Position numbers and translations under genes: made by a program. The notes beneath the pieces were generated by a model, which saw only the letters and a program-made list of their open reading frames with translations, ran no database searches and was not told where the DNA came from. Shown one piece after another: positions 1,245-42,700 of a stretch of DNA of 64,000 nt (the first letter of the stretch is position 1; every line of letters begins with the position of its first letter). The stretch comes from Escherichia phage BEU50. Location: the sequence record OM632671.1. One strand, given 5' to 3'.

Positions 1245-3065
1245 ATGATTAAAAATGAAATTAAGGTATTGTCAGATGTAGAACATATTAAGAAACGTAG
1301 TGGTATGTATATTGGTTCTTCTGCTAAAGAAGCACATGAGCGTTTTTTGTTTGGTAAATATCAACAAGTTGAATATGTTCCTGGTCTGGTTAAATTAATC
1401 GATGAGATTATTGACAACTCGGTTGATGAAGCTATTCGTACATCATTTAAGTTTGCAAATAAAATTGATGTGCAAATTAAAAATAATCAAGTTTCGGTGG
1501 AAGATAACGGACGTGGTATTCCTCAAGGTTTAGTTACCGACCAAACGGGTGAACAAATTCCTGGGCCTGTAGCAGCCTGGACTATTCCAAAGGCTGGTGG
1601 TAACTTTGGTGATGACTCTGAACGCAAGACTGGTGGTATGAACGGTGTAGGGAGTAGTTTAACTAATATCTTCTCTACGTTGTTTACAGGCATCACGTCA
1701 GATGGCGAAAATGAAATCACTGTTAACTGTTCAAACGGAATGGAAAACAAATCATGGTCTTCTAAGAAATCTAAAGGTAAAGGCACTAAAGTAATCTTCA
1801 CTCCTGATTTCTCTTCATTTGAAGAGCATAATTTATCTCAAATTTATTTAGATATTACTTTAGACAGACTTCAAACATTGGCAGTCGTTTATCCTGATAT
1901 CAAGTTCACATTTAATGGTAAAAAGGTTGATGGTAATTTTAAACGATTTGCTAAACAATTTGGTGAAGATAACATCATTCAAGAAAATGATAAAGTCTCT
2001 ATAGCATTCACAACATCACCAGATGGCTTCCGTCATTTAACTTATGTGAATAACATCCATACTAAAAATGGTGGCCATCATGTTGAATGTGTAATGGATG
2101 ATATCTGTGAACATCTTTTGCCGGGTATTAAAAAGAAATATAAGGGTATTGAAGTCACTAAAGCTCGTGTTAAAGAATGCCTCACAATGTTGATGTTTAT
2201 TAGAGACATGAGCAACATGCGTTTTGATTCTCAGACTAAAGAACGTTTAACGTCAACGTATGGTGATATTCGTAATCATATCCAATTAGATGCTAAGAAA
2301 ATTGCTCAGGCACTTCTTAAAAACGAAGCCTTGATTATGCCTATTGTTGAAGCAGCATTAGCTCGTAAATTGGCAGCAGAAAAGGCTGCAGAAACTAAAG
2401 CAGCTAAAAAGGCGACTAAAGCTAAGGTTCATAAGCATATTAAAGCTAACCAATGTGGTAAAGATGCAGATACGACATTGTTTTTAACAGAAGGTGATTC
2501 GGCAATTGGTTATCTCATTGATGTTCGTGACCGTGAACTACACGGCGGATTCCCATTACGTGGTAAGGTGATGAATAGCTGGGGTATGTCATATGCTGAT
2601 ATGATGAAGAACAAAGAGCTCTTTGATATCTGTGCTATCACAGGTCTTATTCTTGGTGAAAAGGCAGAGAATACGAACTATCGTAATATTGCAATTATGA
2701 CCGATGCCGATCATGACGGTCTTGGAAGTATCTATCCAGCTTTGCTTGCTTTCTTTAGTAATTGGCCTGAATTGTTTGAACAAGGACGTATTCGCTTTGT
2801 TAAAACGCCTGTAATTATTGCACAAATTGGCAAAACTCAAAAATGGTTTTATACTGTAGCTGAGTATGAAGAAGCTAAAGATACACTGCCTAAGCATAGT
2901 ATTCGATACATCAAGGGATTGGGCTCACTTCAGCGAGATGAATATAAAGAAATGATTCAAAACCCTGTGTACGACGTAGTTAAACTTCCTGAAAATTGGA
3001 AAGAACTATTTGAAATGCTCATGGGTAACGACCCTGAACTCCGTAAAGATTGGATGCTAGGATAA
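1245..3065 (+). CDS. 39: DNA topoisomerase II large subunit, ATPase (uninterrupted 606-aa form)
   Basis: GHKL ATPase motifs DEIIDNSVDEA and EDNGRGIP; T-even gp39 family; 606 aa, i.e. not split into 39 and 60. Confidence 0.9.
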   Translation: MIKNEIKVLSDVEHIKKRSGMYIGSSAKEAHERFLFGKYQQVEYVPGLVKLIDEIIDNSVDEAIRTSFKFANKIDVQIKNNQVSVEDNGRGIPQGLVTDQTGEQIPGPVAAWTIPKAGGNFGDDSERKTGGMNGVGSSLTNIFSTLFTGITSDGENEITVNCSNGMENKSWSSKKSKGKGTKVIFTPDFSSFEEHNLSQIYLDITLDRLQTLAVVYPDIKFTFNGKKVDGNFKRFAKQFGEDNIIQENDKVSIAFTTSPDGFRHLTYVNNIHTKNGGHHVECVMDDICEHLLPGIKKKYKGIEVTKARVKECLTMLMFIRDMSNMRFDSQTKERLTSTYGDIRNHIQLDAKKIAQALLKNEALIMPIVEAALARKLAAEKAAETKAAKKATKAKVHKHIKANQCGKDADTTLFLTEGDSAIGYLIDVRDRELHGGFPLRGKVMNSWGMSYADMMKNKELFDICAITGLILGEKAENTNYRNIAIMTDADHDGLGSIYPALLAFFSNWPELFEQGRIRFVKTPVIIAQIGKTQKWFYTVAEYEEAKDTLPKHSIRYIKGLGSLQRDEYKEMIQNPVYDVVKLPENWKELFEMLMGNDPELRKDWMLG

Positions 3066-3862
3066 TGAATTATCGTAAAATTTATGATAAACTTATCGCT
3101 GCGGCTAAAAACCGCAGCATTATTCCTAATTATACTGAGACACATCATATATTGCCAAAATCTATGGGTGGGAGTAATGATAAATCAAATCTAGTTAAAA
3201 TGACCCCTAGAGAGCATTTTATCGCCCATTTATTGCTTTATAAAATTCATAAGAACCGTTCTATGCTTATGGCTATTAGAGCTTTTTACATGGGAGCTAG
3301 AAATTCTAGAGATTATGATTGGCTTAAACAAGAATTCTCTAAAGAGCACTCTAGATTTATGAAAGAATGGATTGCTAAAAACGGCAACCCATTTAAAGGT
3401 AAAAAACATACTAAAGCAACAAGAGAATTAATGTCACATATTGCTTCACAACGTATAGGCGAATTAAATCCATTTTATGGTAAAACTCATACGCAAGAAG
3501 CAATAGATAAAATAATACAGGCCAACAAGTTATCTTGGGAGAATGGGCGAAAAGCACCTGTAAAAACAAAAGAACACCAGGATAAAATAACTAAATCAAG
3601 AATGGAAACATTTAAAACAAAAGGATTTAAACCATACACTCCTAGGTCGGAAGAAACTAAAGCTAAGACTAGAGAGTTGTATAAATCTAAATATGAAAGA
3701 AGGCCTATAAGAATCACAAGTGTAAAAACAGGTGAAACTATTGATTTTAACTATCTTTATGAATTAAGAGAGTATTTAGATATAGGGTCTTCTAATATAT
3801 TGAAAGCATTAAATAATCCTAACAGAACCTGCAAAGGTTATAAAATGTGTTGGATGTCCTAA
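3065..3862 (+). CDS. HNH homing endonuclease (mob-type, free-standing)
   Basis: HNH motif HHILPKSMGGSNDKSNLV; repeated GK-HT helix motifs; ATG at 3065 overlaps gp39 stop; ORF-track start 3050 is TTG. Confidence 0.8.
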   Translation: MNYRKIYDKLIAAAKNRSIIPNYTETHHILPKSMGGSNDKSNLVKMTPREHFIAHLLLYKIHKNRSMLMAIRAFYMGARNSRDYDWLKQEFSKEHSRFMKEWIAKNGNPFKGKKHTKATRELMSHIASQRIGELNPFYGKTHTQEAIDKIIQANKLSWENGRKAPVKTKEHQDKITKSRMETFKTKGFKPYTPRSEETKAKTRELYKSKYERRPIRITSVKTGETIDFNYLYELREYLDIGSSNILKALNNPNRTCKGYKMCWMS

Positions 3863-15925: not shown

Positions 15926-16399
15926 ATGTTATTGACTGGCAAATTATACAAAGAAGAAAAACAAAAATTTTATAATGTACAAAACGGTAAATGCTTAATT
16001 TGCCAACGAGAACTAAATCCTGATGTTCAAGCTAATCACCTTGACCATGACCATGAATTAAATGGACCAAAAGCAGGAAAGGTACGTGGATTGCTTTGTA
16101 ATCTCTGCAATGCTGCAGAAGGTCAAATGAAGCACAAATTTAATCGTTCTGGCTTAAAGGGTCAAGGTGTTGATTATCTTGAATGGTTAGAAAATTTACT
16201 TACTTATTTAAAATCCGATTACACCCAAAATAATATTCACCCTAACTTTGTTGGAGATAAATCAAAGGAATTTTCTCGTTTAGGAAAAGAGGAAATGATG
16301 GCCGAGATGCTTCAAAGTGGATTTGAATATAATGAATCTGACACCAAAACACAATTAATAGCTTCATTTAAGAAGCAGCTTAGAAAGAGTTTAAAATGA
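15926..16399 (+). CDS. 49: endonuclease VII (Holliday junction resolvase)
   Basis: 157 aa; zinc-binding CLIC...C..C; matches T4 gp49 family. Confidence 0.88.
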   Translation: MLLTGKLYKEEKQKFYNVQNGKCLICQRELNPDVQANHLDHDHELNGPKAGKVRGLLCNLCNAAEGQMKHKFNRSGLKGQGVDYLEWLENLLTYLKSDYTQNNIHPNFVGDKSKEFSRLGKEEMMAEMLQSGFEYNESDTKTQLIASFKKQLRKSLK

Positions 16400-17217
16400 A
16401 TGTAGTATATAAACTATCATTTATTAATAGAATTAATGCTAAAACCCCACCATATTATTACATTGGAAGTAAAACCAATTGCACTTTTGATGGAACGAAT
16501 ATTATTGATAAAAATGGTAAATTTTATTATTCGTCTTCGTCATCTTCTGAATTTCAAAAAGCCTTATTGAAAGAAACGCCGAAAGTTGAAATATTATATT
16601 TTCAATTAGTCGGAGATGAACAAATAACTAGCATTGAAGCTGAATTTCAAAAGAATATAGAAAAAGATGTATGGAATAAAGAGTATTTTAATTTAGCATA
16701 TGCTGATGGCAAATTTACGACATATGGTATTTCTCCTTCTAAAGAAACTAGAGAAAAGCAATCAATAACCATGATTAAAAGAAATCGTAATAAAGGCAAA
16801 AATCATGGATTTTATGGAAAGCATCATACTAATTTAGCTAGAAAGAAAATATCAGAAGCTTCTAAAAAATACTGGAAAGAAAATCCACATCGTGGATTTT
16901 CGCATACAAAGGAAGCTAAAATTAAAATTGGAATTTCATCTTCTATCAGGCATAAAGGAAGTGGAAATCCGATGTATGGTGTAAAACCTTGGAAAACTCC
17001 GAGCGCAATTAAATCTGGTACTTGTATATTATGGTTAAAATACGCAGAAATTTTATATGATTATTTAAGTCCAGATTTTAAAAGTAAATCATCTATTTTT
17101 GCGGATTTAAACTTACCGAAATTTAGAATTGATAATTTCATCAAAAGGTTTAAAATGGGTTGGAACCCATATTTAGACGAAGAATTTCAAAAGGATAAAT
17201 TAGAATTATGTCTTTAG
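16396..17217 (+). CDS. GIY-YIG homing endonuclease (seg-like, free-standing)
   Basis: N-terminal VYKL...PYYYIGS GIY-YIG module; downstream basic helix repeats; start and stop overlap neighbouring genes. Confidence 0.75.
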   Translation: MNVVYKLSFINRINAKTPPYYYIGSKTNCTFDGTNIIDKNGKFYYSSSSSSEFQKALLKETPKVEILYFQLVGDEQITSIEAEFQKNIEKDVWNKEYFNLAYADGKFTTYGISPSKETREKQSITMIKRNRNKGKNHGFYGKHHTNLARKKISEASKKYWKENPHRGFSHTKEAKIKIGISSSIRHKGSGNPMYGVKPWKTPSAIKSGTCILWLKYAEILYDYLSPDFKSKSSIFADLNLPKFRIDNFIKRFKMGWNPYLDEEFQKDKLELCL

Positions 17218-18205
17218 AAAAAGATGTTTTAAATTTTATTTCAAATAAAGATAAAGAATTAAATACAGAAAACGCCAACAAAGATTCTCGCGTCTTTCCA
17301 ACAAAAAGAGATTTAATGGCCGGTATTGTTTCTAAACATATCGCTTGTCGTATTCTTCCAAGTCATATTGTAAATGCCCATAATGTTGGATTAATTCATT
17401 TTCATGATTTAGATTACAGTATATCATTGCCTTTTACTAATTGCTGTTTAGTAGATTTAAAAGGAATGCTTGAGAACGGGTTTAAGCTCGGTAATGCACA
17501 GATTGAAACTCCTAAATCAATCGGTGTTGCTACTGCAATTATGGCACAAATTACTGCACAGGTTGCTTCTCACCAATATGGCGGAACTACATTTGCTAAT
17601 GTCGATAAAGTACTTTCTCCTTATGTTAAACGCACCTATGCAAAACATATCGAAGACGCAGAAAAATGGCAAATCGCCGATGCGTTAAATTATGCTCAAT
17701 CTAAAACAGAAAAAGACGTATACGATGCATTCCAAGCTTATGAATATGAAGTAAATACTCTCTTTAGTTCAAACGGACAGACTCCTTTTGTAACAATTAC
17801 ATTTGGTACAGGAACTGACTGGACTGAACGAATGATTCAGAAAGCAATTCTGAAAAATCGTATTAAAGGTCTTGGTCGTGATGGGATAACTCCTATTTTC
17901 CCTAAGCTTGTTATGTTTGTTGAAGAAGGTGTTAATCTTTATAAAGACGATCCGAACTATGATATTAAGCAGCTTGCTCTAGAGTGTGCAAGCAAAAGAA
18001 TGTATCCTGATATTATTTCAGCTAAGAACAATAAAGCTATCACTGGTTCATCTGTTCCTGTTTCTCCAATGGGTTGCCGTAGTTTCTTGGGCGTATGGAA
18101 AGATTCGACTGGTAATGAAATTCTTGATGGACGTAATAATCTTGGCGTTGTAACACTGAATCTTCCTCGCATCGCGTTAGATTCTTATATTGGAACACAG
18201 TTCAA
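17208..18205 (+). pseudogene. nrdD: anaerobic ribonucleotide reductase NrdD, 5' portion only (truncated near codon 333)
   Basis: N-terminal two-thirds of class III RNR; frame then runs into reverse complement of gp37 start; no glycyl radical C-terminus. Confidence 0.8.
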
Positions 18206-25810: not shown

Positions 25811-26137
25811 ATGTTGAATTATCACCGCGCGGGCCGTCTATGCCGGGTAGTGAATAAATATAAATCCGACTTTGATGTTAATATTCACCGTGGTACATTT
25901 TGGGGAAATTACGTCGGTAAAGATGCTGGCAGCCGGGAGGCTGCCATTGAATTATTCAAAAAAGATTTTATACGTCGAATTAAATCCGGAGAAATAACTA
26001 AAGCACATTTAGAGCCTTTACGTGGAATGAGGCTAGGATGCACATGTAAACCAAAGCCGTGTCATGGTGATATAATAGCTCATATAGTTAACCGACTGTT
26101 TAAAGACGATTTTCAAGTTGAGGACTTATGCAATTAA
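25811..26137 (+). CDS. conserved hypothetical protein (DUF4326-like Cys/His motif)
   Basis: [12 protein letters not shown] motif; overlaps nrdA start. Confidence 0.55.
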
Positions 26138-28392
26138 TTAATGTTATCAAAAGTAGTGGTGTTTCTCAGAGCTTTGACCCGCAAAAAATTATTAAAGTTT
26201 TATCTTGGGCAGCTGAAGGAACATCAGTAGATCCTTATGAATTATATGAAAATATTAAATCTTATCTCCGTGATGGAATGACAACTGATGATATTCAGAC
26301 TATTGTCATTAAGGCCGCTGCGAATTCTATTTCGGTTGAAGAGCCTGATTATCAATATGTAGCTGCACGCTGTTTAATGTTCGCTCTTCGTAAGCATGTT
26401 TATGGGCAGTATGAACCACGTTCATTTATTGACCATATTTCTTACTGCGTAAATGAAGGTAAATATGACCCTGAATTATTGTCAAAATATTCAGCAGAAG
26501 AAATTACATTTTTAGAATCAAAAATTAAGCACGAGCGGGATATGGAATTTACTTATTCCGGGGCGATGCAATTAAAAGAAAAATATCTAGTCAAAGATAA
26601 AACCACCGGTCAAATTTATGAAACTCCGCAGTTTGCATTTATGACTATTGGAATGGCATTGCATCAAGATGAACCTGTTGATAGACTAAAACACGTTATC
26701 CGTTTTTATGAAGCAGTATCCACTCGACAGATTTCATTGCCAACTCCTATTATGGCTGGTTGCCGTACTCCGACTCGACAGTTTAGTTCATGTGTTGTTA
26801 TTGAGGCAGGAGATTCATTGAAGTCTATCAATAAGGCTTCTGCTTCAATTGTTGAATATATCTCTAAACGCGCTGGAATTGGTATTAACGTTGGTATGAT
26901 TCGTGCCGAAGGTTCTAAGATTGGCATGGGTGAAGTACGCCATACTGGTGTTATTCCTTTTTGGAAACATTTTCAGACTGCAGTTAAATCATGTTCACAG
27001 GGTGGAATTCGTGGCGGCGCTGCTACTGCTTATTATCCTATTTGGCATTTGGAAGTTGAAAATCTTCTCGTTTTGAAAAATAACAAAGGCGTAGAAGAAA
27101 ACCGCATTCGTCATATGGATTATGGTGTTCAACTGAATGATTTGATGATGGAACGTTTTGGAAAGAACGATTACATTACTTTGTTCAGTCCCCATGAAAT
27201 GGGTGGAGAGCTTTATTATTCTTATTTTAAAGACCAAGACCGTTTCCGTGAATTATACGAAGCAGCAGAAAAAGACCCTAATATTCGTAAAAAGCGTATT
27301 AAAGCCCGTGAACTATTTGAATTGCTCATGACTGAACGTTCAGGAACAGCAAGGATTTATGTACAGTTCATTGATAATACGAATAACTATACTCCGTTTA
27401 TTCGTGAAAAGGCACCTATTCGTCAGAGTAACTTGTGCTGTGAAATTGCTATTCCAACAAATGATGTGAATAGTCCTGATGCTGAAATTGGATTGTGTAC
27501 TCTCTCTGCATTCGTACTAGATAATTTTGACTGGCAAGACCAAGATAAAATTAATGAATTGGCAGAAGTTCAAGTTCGTGCTCTTGATAATCTTTTGGAT
27601 TACCAAGGATATCCAGTTCCTGAAGCAGAAAAAGCTAAAAAGCGTCGTAACCTTGGCGTAGGTGTTACCAACTATGCAGCTTGGCTGGCAAGTAACTTTG
27701 CTTCTTATGAAGATGCTAACGATTTAACACATGAACTATTTGAGAGATTACAGTATGGACTCATTAAAGCATCCATTAAGCTCGCCAAAGAAAAAGGACC
27801 TTGCGAATATTATTCAGACACTCGTTGGTCTCGAGGCGAATTACCTATCGACTGGTACAATAAAAAGATTGACCAAATCGCAGCTCCAAAATACGTTTGT
27901 GACTGGTCGTCGCTGCGGGAAGACCTCAAGCTCTTTGGCATCCGTAATAGCACATTATCAGCACTTATGCCATGTGAGTCATCTTCCCAAGTTTCTAACA
28001 GTACAAACGGTATCGAGCCTCCACGTGGACCGGTAAGTGTTAAAGAATCAAAAGAGGGTTCCTTTAATCAAGTCGTGCCCAATATTGAGCATAACATAGA
28101 CCTCTATGATTATACGTGGAAATTAGCTAAGAAAGGTAATAAACCTTATCTTACGCAGGTAGCTATTATGCTGAAATGGGTATGTCAATCAGCTTCAGCG
28201 AATACATACTATGACCCGCAAATTTTTCCAAAAGGAAAGGTTCCAATGTCAATAATGATTGATGACATGCTATATGGATGGTATTATGGCATTAAAAATT
28301 TCTATTATCATAATACCCGTGATGGTTCTGGTACTGATGATTATGAAATAGAAACTCCAAAAGCTGAAGATTGTTCATCCTGTAAATTATGA
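26128..28392 (+). CDS. nrdA: aerobic ribonucleotide reductase large subunit
   Basis: 754 aa; ATP-cone N-terminus; active-site Cys motifs; C-terminal Cys pair CSSCKL. Confidence 0.92.
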   Translation: MQLINVIKSSGVSQSFDPQKIIKVLSWAAEGTSVDPYELYENIKSYLRDGMTTDDIQTIVIKAAANSISVEEPDYQYVAARCLMFALRKHVYGQYEPRSFIDHISYCVNEGKYDPELLSKYSAEEITFLESKIKHERDMEFTYSGAMQLKEKYLVKDKTTGQIYETPQFAFMTIGMALHQDEPVDRLKHVIRFYEAVSTRQISLPTPIMAGCRTPTRQFSSCVVIEAGDSLKSINKASASIVEYISKRAGIGINVGMIRAEGSKIGMGEVRHTGVIPFWKHFQTAVKSCSQGGIRGGAATAYYPIWHLEVENLLVLKNNKGVEENRIRHMDYGVQLNDLMMERFGKNDYITLFSPHEMGGELYYSYFKDQDRFRELYEAAEKDPNIRKKRIKARELFELLMTERSGTARIYVQFIDNTNNYTPFIREKAPIRQSNLCCEIAIPTNDVNSPDAEIGLCTLSAFVLDNFDWQDQDKINELAEVQVRALDNLLDYQGYPVPEAEKAKKRRNLGVGVTNYAAWLASNFASYEDANDLTHELFERLQYGLIKASIKLAKEKGPCEYYSDTRWSRGELPIDWYNKKIDQIAAPKYVCDWSSLREDLKLFGIRNSTLSALMPCESSSQVSNSTNGIEPPRGPVSVKESKEGSFNQVVPNIEHNIDLYDYTWKLAKKGNKPYLTQVAIMLKWVCQSASANTYYDPQIFPKGKVPMSIMIDDMLYGWYYGIKNFYYHNTRDGSGTDDYEIETPKAEDCSSCKL

Positions 28393-28443
28393 TATAATTT
28401 GACTCATGGACGAGTCACTATCTATTAACTAAGTGGAAAATTT

Positions 28444-29118
28444 ATGAGCACAGTTTTTAATACAAACCCAGTTGATGTTTTAAAAGAACCTATGTTTTTT
28501 GGTTCAGGTCTTGGTATTGCGCGTTATGATATTCAACGCCATAAAGTTTTTGAAGATTTGACCGAAAAGCAATTGTCATTTTTCTGGCGTCCTGAAGAAG
28601 TAAACTTAATGATGGATGCTGCACAGTTTAATAAGCTTCCTCAGTATCAGCAAAATATTTTTACTAATAACCTGAAGTATCAATCACTTTTGGATAGCAT
28701 TCAGGGTCGTGCGCCATCTGCTGTACTTATGTCATTAATTTCAGACCCGAGTCTTGATACATGGGTTGCTACATGGACTTTTAGTGAAACTATTCACAGC
28801 CGTTCATATACACATATCATGCGAAATCTTTATACTGATCCATCGAAGGTATTTGATGAGATTGTATTAGATGAAGCTATTATGAAACGTGCTGAATCTA
28901 TCGGTCGCTATTATGATGATGTTCTGATTAAAACCCGTGAATGGGAAAATGCTAAAGAATTTGTAGAACTAGCTAAAGAATCTCCTGATGCTGTCTTTCG
29001 TTTAAACCGAGCTATTAAACAAGAAGCCGAAGCTAAACGTGCTTTAATGAAATCTCTTTACCTCTGTTTGCACGTTATTAATGCCTTAGAAGCATTCGTT
29101 TTTATGTATCTTTTGCGT
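28444..29118 (+). CDS. nrdB: ribonucleotide reductase small subunit, exon 1 (apparent -1 frameshift near 29094)
   Basis: R2 di-iron family; frame gives ...NALEA then off-frame, while the conserved IRFYVSFA continues in the -1 frame up to the 5' splice site. Confidence 0.8.
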
Positions 29119-29228
29119 AAAATGCGCCTTTAAACGGTAACGTTTATCGAAAACTCCTTTAATTGCTGGAAAGTCCTTTATAGGAAAACTAGCAGCCAAG
29201 GTTTTGCTTGCACCTTTAATTAGTATAA

Positions 29229-29236
29229 TATAAATA
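29229..29236 (+). promoter_or_regulatory. late promoter-like TATAAATA upstream of intron ORF
   Basis: TATAAATA about 28 nt before the intron ORF start. Confidence 0.4.
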
Positions 29237-29263
29237 TGGTTATACTTTTAAGAGGATGCACAA

Positions 29264-30073
29264 TTGAACTATAGAAAAATTTGGATAGATGCTAACGGAC
29301 CTATACCTAAAGATTCTGATGGAAGAACATACGAAATCCATCATAAAGACGGTAACCGTGAAAATAATGATTTAGATAATTTGATGTGCCTTTCTATACA
29401 GGAACATTATGATATACATTTAGCTCAAAAAGATTACCAGGCTTGTCATGCTATAAAGCTTAGAATGAAATATTCTCCTGAAGAAATTTCTGAATTAGCT
29501 TCTAAAGCCGCAAAATCTAGAGAAATCCAGATTTTTAATATCCCTGAAGTACGAGCTAAAAATATTGCCTCTATTAAATCTAAGATAGAAAATGGTACAT
29601 TTCATCTTTTAGATGGTGAAATACAGCGTAAATCTAATTTAAATAGAGTTGCATTAGGTATACATAATTTTCAACAAGCTGAGCATATTGCAAAAGTTAA
29701 AGAACGCAATATTGCAGCTATAAAAGAAGGTACTCATGTATTTTGCGGTGGTAAAATGCAGTCAGAAACTCAATCAAAACGGGTAAATGACGGTTCACAT
29801 CATTTCTTATCAGAAGACCATAAGAAAAGAACATCAGCAAAAACATTAGAAATGGTTAAGAACGGGACCCATCCTGCACAAAAAGAAATCACATGTGATT
29901 TTTGTGGTCACATTGGTAAAGGTCCTGGATTTTATCTAAAACATAATGACAGATGTAAATTAAATCCAAATAGAATTCAATTGAATTGTCCATATTGTGA
30001 TAAGAAAGATTTATCACCATCAACATATAAACGATGGCACGGCGACAATTGCAAAACAAGGTTCAACGACTAG
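29264..30073 (+). CDS. I-TevIII: HNH homing endonuclease, intron-encoded (I-TevIII-like, full length 269 aa)
   Basis: HNH motif HHKDGNRENNDLDNL plus C-terminal Cys4 zinc finger; TTG start codon in ORF track. Confidence 0.8.
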   Translation: MNYRKIWIDANGPIPKDSDGRTYEIHHKDGNRENNDLDNLMCLSIQEHYDIHLAQKDYQACHAIKLRMKYSPEEISELASKAAKSREIQIFNIPEVRAKNIASIKSKIENGTFHLLDGEIQRKSNLNRVALGIHNFQQAEHIAKVKERNIAAIKEGTHVFCGGKMQSETQSKRVNDGSHHFLSEDHKKRTSAKTLEMVKNGTHPAQKEITCDFCGHIGKGPGFYLKHNDRCKLNPNRIQLNCPYCDKKDLSPSTYKRWHGDNCKTRFND

Positions 30074-30208
30074 TCTTCGGACGTAGGGTCAAGCGACTCG
30101 AAATGGGGAGAATCCCTCCGGGATTGTGATATAGTCTGGACTGCATGGTAACATGCAGCAGTTCATAAGAGAACGGGTTGAGAATTAGCGAGCTCAATCG
30201 AACATACG

Positions 30209-30711
30209 GTACCTTTAACTTCCATAAAAATATGGAAATTATGGAAGGTAATGCAAAGATTATGAAGTTCATTGCTCGTGACGAACAACTCCACCTCAAG
30301 GGTACTCAGTACATTATCCGTCAACTTCAATCTGGTACTGATGGTGATGAGTGGGTTCAAATTGCTAAAGAATGTGAACAAGAAGCAGTTGACATTTTTA
30401 TGGAAGTAAATAGTCAAGAGAAGGAATGGGCTGCACACCTCTTTAAAGACGGTACATGTCCAGGTATCAATACGCAGAGTATGTGTGCTTTTGTTGATTA
30501 CTTGACTGTGTCTCGTATGAAACAGTGTGGTTTGCCATGCCCAATCACTGATGCTCCGACCAAGCATCCGTATCCTTGGATTCGTGAATATCTGAACTCT
30601 GATTTAGTTCAAGCCGCTCCTCAGGAAGTTGAAATCAGTTCTTATCTTGTCGCACAAATTGATAATGATGTAGACCAAAATGTAATCAATTCATACAAAA
30701 AATATTTCTAA
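30209..30711 (+). CDS. nrdB: ribonucleotide reductase small subunit, exon 2
   Basis: Begins GT-ACC-TTT (..CTFNFHKNMEIMEGNAKI); ORF-track 30178..30711 includes intron-derived leader. Confidence 0.8.
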
Positions 30712-38914: not shown

Positions 38915-39208
38915 GTTTTAGGTGATTCGCTACCTTAGTGCGGCTAGAAAATCGAGGAGCCGTCGAACTGTCTGATTAATGATTTGCGAATCATTATAGT
39001 TTTAAGACCCCGGCAGTTTTACGGTGTACCTCTTGAATGTATTTTGTACTATCACGCGTCAGAAAAAGGTTATCTGTCTAAGTCGTGGTTGGTATGATGA
39101 CGGGTTTATGGTTATCCTGTCGTTAAATATCCAAAACCTATGTTCCCTTCGAGGGCTTGCGCAGGCAATGTCAATAAGTCCTGCATTTTCATTTAAAGAG
39201 AATTTATA

Positions 39209-41888: not shown

Positions 41889-42700
41889 AGCCTACTATTT
41901 TGACTGATATTGATGGTGTATGTTTAAGCTGGCAATCTGGACTTCCTTATTTTGCCCAAAAATATAACCTTCCATTAGAACATATTTTAAAAATGATTCA
42001 GGACGAAAAATTTATTTCTCCTGGTAAACTGTTCAATACCGACGATAACCTTGGTAAACAATTAATAGAAAAATATAATAGCTCTGATTTTATTCGTTAC
42101 TTAGCGCCTTATTCTGATGCTCTTCGAGTTATCAATAAACTAAAAGAAGACTATAATTTTGTAGCCGTGACGGCGCTAGGTGATTCAATTGATGCTCGAT
42201 TGAATAGACAATTTAATTTGAATGCTTTGTTCCCAGGCGCTTTCTCTGAAGTAATGATGTGTGGTCATGATTCTTCAAAGGAACAATTATTCGAACTAGC
42301 TAAAACAAAATATAACGTAATTTGTTACGTTGACGATTTAGCTCATCATTGTGACCATGCGGCAGAAATTCTTAATGTACCGATTTATTGGTTGGCTCGT
42401 GGTGAACGTGATGCCATTCCTCGTACTGCACAACGTGTACACACGTGGGATGATATTGAATCTCGTTTGGTTCTGCCTAAGAATAATTCAGATTCAGATC
42501 GTGAAGACCTTTTAAAACGATTGGCGGATTTGCTTAAAGAATCTGGTGCAACAAGTCCAGGTGCATGGCCTAATCAAATTGGCGCTCCGTCGAATCCGTA
42601 TACCTGGCGAACCCTAGGACCAACCGATATGCAGCCATGGTGGACGATTCAAAACTTTCCTTTAGATTCGTCTAAATGGACTTGGTCTATAAATTGTTAA
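41885..42700 (+). CDS. HAD-superfamily hydrolase (putative nucleotidase/phosphatase)
   Basis: N-terminal HAD motif I LTDIDGV; 271 aa. Confidence 0.55.
   Translation: MKPTILTDIDGVCLSWQSGLPYFAQKYNLPLEHILKMIQDEKFISPGKLFNTDDNLGKQLIEKYNSSDFIRYLAPYSDALRVINKLKEDYNFVAVTALGDSIDARLNRQFNLNALFPGAFSEVMMCGHDSSKEQLFELAKTKYNVICYVDDLAHHCDHAAEILNVPIYWLARGERDAIPRTAQRVHTWDDIESRLVLPKNNSDSDREDLLKRLADLLKESGATSPGAWPNQIGAPSNPYTWRTLGPTDMQPWWTIQNFPLDSSKWTWSINC

Follow-up and report, generated by a model that had tools for sequence, protein, structure and literature searches.

Organization of the nrdA-nrdB locus

We analyzed a 64,000-nt stretch of the Escherichia phage BEU50 record OM632671.1 (the whole of which is referred to here as the window), in which nrdA lies upstream of nrdB, and nrdB is interrupted by an intron that itself holds a homing endonuclease ORF (Table 1). 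The exact NrdA protein is present in many Tequatrovirus genomes; the gene is 97.5 to 98% identical to those of the Tequatrovirus phages SHFML-26 and SHFML-11 and 78% identical to those of the Mosigvirus phages a20 and WFK. Only 51 nt (28393-28443) separate nrdA from nrdB. The free-standing homing endonuclease gene mobE, which sits between the two genes in T4 and RB3, is absent from this spacer, as it is in SHFML-11 and a20. In the relatives the ORF of nrdB exon 1 comprises 225 aa, and its TAA terminator straddles the splice junction (GCG T/AA). Exon 2 is 100% identical to that of a20 and about 82% identical to that of Tequatrovirus phages.

Table 1. Features of the nrdA-nrdB locus and segments of the window
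Feature	Position	Strand	Remarks
nrdA, large subunit of aerobic ribonucleotide reductase	26128..28392	+	Intact ORF, 754 aa; Tequatrovirus type
nrdB exon 1	28444..29118	+	675 nt (676 nt in all relatives); Tequatrovirus-like
Missing-base site	29093..29094	+	Wobble position of the Ala217 codon GC[T/A/C], directly after Glu216; from alignments
Out-of-frame tail FVFMYLLRKMRL	29094..29133	+	TAA at 29131-29133, nt 13-15 of the intron; from translation
T5 run (29099-29103) with I-TevIII cleavage position	29099..29105	+	Run from sequence reading; cleavage from PMC1865063
Predicted P1 hairpin	29115..29127	+	Exon GCGU pairs with intron guide GCGC; U29118-G29124 wobble at 5' splice site
nrdB group I intron, RB3 type	29119..30208	+	1090 nt; terminal G30208
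I-TevIII homing endonuclease ORF, inside intron	29264..30073	+	Full length, 269 aa; HNH motif
nrdB exon 2	30209..30711	+	503 nt; ARDEQLH iron ligands and C-terminal tail; in phase with the -1 frame of exon 1
Segment	1-7346		98.5% identical to Mosigvirus a20; goF, gene 39, homing endonuclease, rIIA cut short
Segment	7348-18206		Tequatrovirus-like; regB through tk, gene 49 to truncated nrdD; wrong map position
Segment	18207-25726		99% to Tequatrovirus SHFML-26; gene 37 5' end, 36, 35, 34, rnh, dsbA, 33, first 19 codons of gene 59
Segment	25727 onward		Begins upstream of nrdA; T-even map, collinear to about 63 kb

The intron boundaries were checked by joining the exons and comparing the product with intronless nrdB, which it matched. 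Both exon/intron junctions are identical to those of RB3, a20 and T4T, which puts the insertion at the same position as in T4 and RB3, and the intron is 98.9 to 99.9% identical to the introns of RB3, a20 and SHFML-11. The RB3 annotation has the same arrangement, with nrdB as a joined CDS plus the I-TevIII ORF. A search of Rfam at the gathering threshold returned no match for the intron; below that threshold, RF00028 (group I) aligned at 29918-30158 with 35.6 bits (E = 4e-7; gathering score, 50). This match is subthreshold and confined to the 3' half of the core because the 810-nt ORF splits the core. Matches to the S15 leader and mir-1 in the E-value run of Rfam were dismissed as chance. The U-G wobble at the 5' splice site of P1, in a predicted fold, and the terminal intron G are both present; the P1 hairpin is short and its fold taken alone is not significant (z = -0.74), and its sequence is the same in RB3 and T4. 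With 99% or more identity to annotated introns, the element is classed as an RB3-type group I intron, its self-splicing and homing being putative.

The I-TevIII ORF has the length and position annotated in RB3 and matches Pfam HNH_3 with 48.7 bits, and its exact protein also occurs in a20 and in metagenome contigs. Residues 74 to 114 give a marginal match to Pfam FlgM (anti-sigma-28) of 26.2 bits against a cutoff of 25, which recurs as a weak precomputed match on identical proteins in other contigs; this is probably a chance similarity of a helical linker. Upstream of the ORF, which is called from a TTG start at 29264, the window has a private G at 29239, where all six aligned relatives have A, just 3' of the late-promoter-like motif TATAAATA (29229-29236).

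A base missing from nrdB exon 1

An earlier note on this DNA had placed an apparent frameshift in nrdB exon 1 just upstream of the intron, with one base lost and the conserved segment IRFYVSFA displaced to the -1 frame. Alignment and translation bear this out. The zero frame of nrdB reads ...LYLCLHVINALEA and then FVFMYLLRKMRL up to a stop that lies within the intron, as the note had described, while the -1 frame over the same bases reads ...IRFYVSFA. Against RB3, a20, SHFML-11, WFK, SHFML-26 and T4T, about 160 nt are identical save for a single gap, which falls after C29093 and before A29094 and lies 25 nt ahead of the 5' splice site. With the base absent, the site is written in the window as GAAGCATTCG.

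The base is present in all 29 relatives whose loci were fetched, as GCT in 26 (including T4T), as GCA in two (SHFML-11 and SHFML-26) and as GCC in one. We also ran the surrounding 76 nt as a query against 50,697 phage records; none of the 239 that matched shares the gap, the best matching at 76/77 and none exactly. The exact deleted pattern had no match in viral contigs. When the pattern was allowed to contain either no base or one base at the site, four viral or metagenome contigs were recovered, all with the base, and genome contigs yielded none. An exact-protein look-up of the truncated 229-aa NrdB likewise found no record. The one-base gap in nrdB is therefore not a matter of chance, and the claim that a base is missing is correct. 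Where the earlier note went astray was in taking GCA ATT as the default sequence and locating the deletion in a run of two A's: T4 and 26 of the 29 relatives have GCT ATT, and such a run would have existed only if the ancestor was SHFML-11-like. The comparison of exon 1 with T4 and RB3 nrdB that the note had proposed finds the base at the gap site in both.

Consequences for the NrdB protein

Insertion of any base at the gap gives a 1179-nt spliced ORF and a 392-aa NrdB, which matches E. coli R2 structures with E = 5e-127. The repaired protein scores 132.5 bits over residues 33 to 335 against Pfam Ribonuc_red_sm (PF00268; cutoff, 33.6), whereas the spliced product as written scores 72.3 bits over residues 33 to 161 only. 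As written, the gene yields 229 aa unspliced or 243 aa spliced. The di-iron ligands of E. coli R2 are D84, E115, H118, E204, E238 and H241, with Y122 as the radical tyrosine. In an alignment to R2, E216/A217 of the phage protein correspond to E. coli E204/A205, and E251/H254 correspond to E238/H241. As the record stands, no one frame holds the full ligand set and the radical tyrosine, which are complete only after one base has been added; the products as written lack E251 and H254, two of the six iron ligands, both of which lie out of frame. The C-terminal tail that binds the large subunit (...SYKKYF, residue 392) is likewise reached only in the repaired reading. On the strength of these alignments, NrdB as written must be inactive.

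A real deletion would let ribosomes translate four codons beyond the point at which they stop in the relatives and so pass over the P1 guide. Stop codons in frame at the beginning of introns are considered to guard folding and splicing (PMC3984707), and splicing might therefore also suffer.

One way in which a full-length protein could still be made is that the frame is restored during expression, either by a -1 ribosomal slip on the U5 run or by a shifted splice site. A -1 shift anywhere from 29078 to the stop reenters the native frame, and U5 at 29099-29103 would allow tRNA-Phe to re-pair; a slip there (GUU UUU AUG) would give ...LEAFVFYVSFACTF... and a full-length NrdB with I218F and R219V. 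A 5' splice moved one base downstream, to follow A29119, would likewise bring exon 2 back into frame. However, the zero frame (codons GCA UUC GUU UUU AUG UAU) contains no X XXY YYZ heptamer, so that only a single-tRNA slip on UUU would be possible, and local folding is no better than that of shuffled sequence (z = -0.8). Nor is the shifted arrangement conserved in any of the 239 phage records or the 29 fetched loci. As for splicing, the P1 guide and the splice-site context are the same as in the relatives and specify the normal U29118 site; a splice after A29119 would swap nine residues of the metal-site helix, and among canonical alternative sites (U at the 5' end, G at the 3' end) none restores the frame. 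With neither heptamer, stimulatory structure nor conservation to support programmed frameshifting, and with an unchanged guide to set against alternative 5' or 3' splice sites, we rejected both and consider rescue of the frame in expression extremely improbable.

Base-level quality of the window

Twelve relatives, five from Mosigvirus and seven from Tequatrovirus, were set against roughly 32 kb of the window, and at only one indel, the nrdB gap, did the window depart from all the relatives that cover the site. Of 167 ORFs of relatives with a match in the window at 80% identity or above, none reveals another frame change. The remaining 1-nt indels, seen against one relative or another, fall between genes or at gene ends, or else recur in other relatives. 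The possibility that the window is generally error ridden was accordingly rejected, there being no other private indel or frame change. An apparent second deletion near the 3' splice site, at 30205/6, proved to be an insertion in RB3 and WFK. Elsewhere, a 9-nt in-frame deletion at 42594 relative to WFK, G53, JK45 and F31 is common to a20, as is a 1-nt intergenic difference at 38937; these look like natural lineage markers rather than errors.

A plain read error unrelated to the makeup of the rest of the window, such as a miscall of the AA homopolymer in GCA ATT, could in principle leave just such a gap. SHFML-11 and SHFML-26 do have GCA ATT, and the window has rare nearby variants in common with SHFML-11. 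A two-base run is, however, a weak site for such an error, and the much longer homopolymers of the window carry no private indels. Random read error is unlikely because no other private indel or frame change is present, and we regard this explanation as very unlikely indeed.

A patchwork of two phage genera

The window consists of a Mosigvirus (a20-like) backbone and three Tequatrovirus pieces (Table 1). Positions 7348-29093 are Tequatrovirus-like (96 to 99%); from about 29094 the sequence is a20-like (98 to 100%) and collinear with a20 to about 63 kb. The denA-rnlA region, for example, is 99.2% identical to a20 and about 70% identical to Tequatrovirus. The intron is at least 99% identical to both genera. 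In place of about 28.7 kb of the a20 map, the middle of the window has three pieces that total 21.7 kb.

Three of the joins (7347/8, 18206/7 and 25726/7) are sharp, fall in the middle of genes and share no bases with the expected continuations. They cut rIIA (685 of about 725 aa), nrdD (mid-gene), gene 37 (of which the first ~130 nt are kept) and gene 59 (of which 19 codons are kept), and genes 32, frd, td, 38, t, 52 and rIIB, gene 32 being among the essential ones, do not occur where the map would place them. None of the three joins is crossed by any phage record. The 30-mer spanning 25726/7 had no match in viral and genome contigs, and exact-protein look-ups of the ORFs that cross 7347/8 (truncated RIIA) and 18206/7 (truncated NrdD) found none on record. 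Because essential genes are missing and three of the joins are impossible, the window as written is not a replicating phage; to judge from its gene content and joins, it cannot faithfully represent any viable genome.

Some features of the individual segments are worth recording. At 17743-17746, about 1 kb of the nrdD of Yersinia phage fPS-2 is absent from the window. The fPS-2 region has an annotated homing endonuclease and is probably an nrdD intron with I-TevII, and the nrdD fragment of the window looks intronless; a separate 273-aa ORF (16396-17217) lies just upstream. In the region of 1245-3862, the topoisomerase II large subunit (gene 39) is encoded by one ORF of 606 aa that covers nearly the whole family profile, with a homing endonuclease ORF (3050-3862) directly after it. 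Gene 39 here appears to be the undivided form, unlike the split 39 and 60 of T4.

The seam between the two genera in nrdB

The fourth switch, from Tequatrovirus to Mosigvirus, runs through the shared intron region and can be placed within 28994-29649 (655 nt). To its left, the rare variants 28992T and 28994T are common to the window and SHFML-11 alone, and SHFML-11 has GCA at the gap site. To its right, only the gap and G29239 set the window apart from a20 (which has GCT), and its divergence from SHFML-11 begins at 29649. Between 28994 and 29649, a20 and SHFML-11 differ from each other only at the missing base, which is T in the former and A in the latter.

Discussion

In the present work, we found that a single base is missing from nrdB exon 1 at the one position at which the two parental types of the surrounding seam differ. 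The earlier note had offered two alternatives, a real inactivating deletion and a sequence error, and both hold as candidates. The patchwork, which weighs most in choosing between them, had escaped the note. On balance, we think it somewhat probable that the gap arose as an artifact of assembly or of joining, and that the base is missing from the record rather than from a living phage. In such an event, the two flanks of a two-variant "bubble" or, alternatively, two contig ends would have been abutted and the variable base dropped. Several observations favor this explanation: the gap is unique among phage records, fetched loci and environmental contigs; the record as written cannot describe a viable phage; and the lesion, as far as the alignments place it, coincides with the only base that varies along a seam joining two genomes. 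The patchwork and the position of the gap at the sole difference between parental types favor an assembly or join artifact over a plain read error. What the comparisons show directly is the gap and that no relative shares it, what it does to NrdB, the mosaic build of the window and the fact that gap and seam coincide; that the join was made during assembly or processing is our probable inference. Moreover, the lesion is essentially without evolutionary age, since the rest of the locus is undecayed, exon 2 being 100% and the intron 99.9% identical to a20 and nrdA being intact.

Several considerations count against an artifact. The base-level quality of the window is clean, so that the case for an artifact depends on the seam, whose position is fixed only to within 655 nt. 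The gene is dispensable in T4, as would be expected of a real, tolerated mutation. In addition, the other three joins are nonhomologous, while the seam in nrdB is homologous and off by one, and it may be that a different process was at work there.

A second possibility, to which we give considerable weight while still doubting it, is that the gap is a genuine and very recent one-base deletion in the phage or in the sequenced stock (whether or not left as a scar of recombination), which would make nrdB a null allele. The phage would then survive because host NrdAB and the breakdown of host DNA supply deoxynucleotides. Freedom from indel noise in the rest of the window speaks for a real deletion. 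Classical T4 nrd mutants are viable. Furthermore, nrdA and nrdB have been classed as "Quasicore, auxiliary metabolism," substitutable in some backgrounds (PMC2993671); one review terms nrdB "essential" in passing (PMC2988022). On the other hand, no relative that was searched shares the deletion, relaxed selection is nowhere evident in nrdA or nrdB, and the record that surrounds the gap is the one that lacks essential genes and contains three impossible joins.

A more specific version of the real deletion invokes a true intergenus recombinant, in which Tequatrovirus nrdA and exon 1 came to lie on a Mosigvirus backbone through a crossover in the mobile intron and the deletion is a mutational scar of that event. 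The I-TevIII cut site (PMC1865063) lies 10 to 12 bp downstream of the gap, and the gap site is the sole mismatch expected in a heteroduplex of the two parental types. A single A/T mismatch near the cut site might thus have been misrepaired. Homing in T-even phages is known to coconvert flanking exon sequence (PMC2790892). However, upstream of the seam the Tequatrovirus-like sequence continues for 3.4 kb or more, which exceeds the maximum coconversion of roughly 2 kb given in the same study (PMC2790892). The mechanism is conceivable but unsupported, and we consider a recombinant of this kind quite unlikely. Were it true, it would be a natural case of intron homing or coconversion damaging the intron's own host gene.

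Much of what is found at this locus has counterparts in known phages. One of the closest known arrangements is that of RB3 nrdB, which shares with the window the insertion site, the intron (98.9%), the 269-aa HNH ORF and the exon context (...GCGT/intron/GTACC). It differs in having GCT ATT, an intact joined nrdB CDS and mobE between nrdA and nrdB, and the window has an exon 2 of Mosigvirus type. Eddy and Gold reportedly described the RB3 nrdB group I intron, encoding full-length I-TevIII, in 1991, and Robbins et al. (2007; PMC1865063) also dealt with it. Mosigvirus a20 (OQ067374) is identical to the window from ~28995 to beyond 30800 except for the gap and G29239, and its I-TevIII is identical; its nrdA and the 5' part of exon 1 are, by contrast, only 78 to 82% identical to those of the window, and its nrdB is in frame. 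T4 shares the gene, the splice site and the local exon (T4T differs only by an extra T over 77 nt), but its intron is shorter, its I-TevIII is truncated and defunct, and its nrdB is functional. If the deletion is real, the allele resembles the loss-of-function nrd mutants of T4 (quasicore genes; PMC2993671), being a simple null in the same dispensable function, although those mutants were isolated and characterized in viable phage and the allele of the window is known from the record alone.

The artifact that we favor also has a known counterpart in the interstrain chimeric contigs and errors of bubble collapse that arise when mixtures of closely related genomes are assembled. As in these, the switch of genomes occurs inside a long shared repeat (here, the mobile intron) and the error falls at the only variable site of that repeat. 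In contrast, the other three joins of the window share no sequence, which is unusual for graph assemblers.

The RB3-type intron, I-TevIII, the splice site and the mosaicism of exons around the mobile intron were thus already known at this locus. Only this record shows the frameshift, which under either leading explanation is ordinary in kind. Other findings made from the window are to be read in the knowledge that two phage genera are pieced together in it, with joins that lack homology, and that essential genes are absent. In annotation, nrdB should be entered as a spliced gene with a flagged frameshift and not as a novel recoding event. The biological weight of the missing base is small, for it would represent either an error in the record or the routine knockout of a dispensable phage gene.
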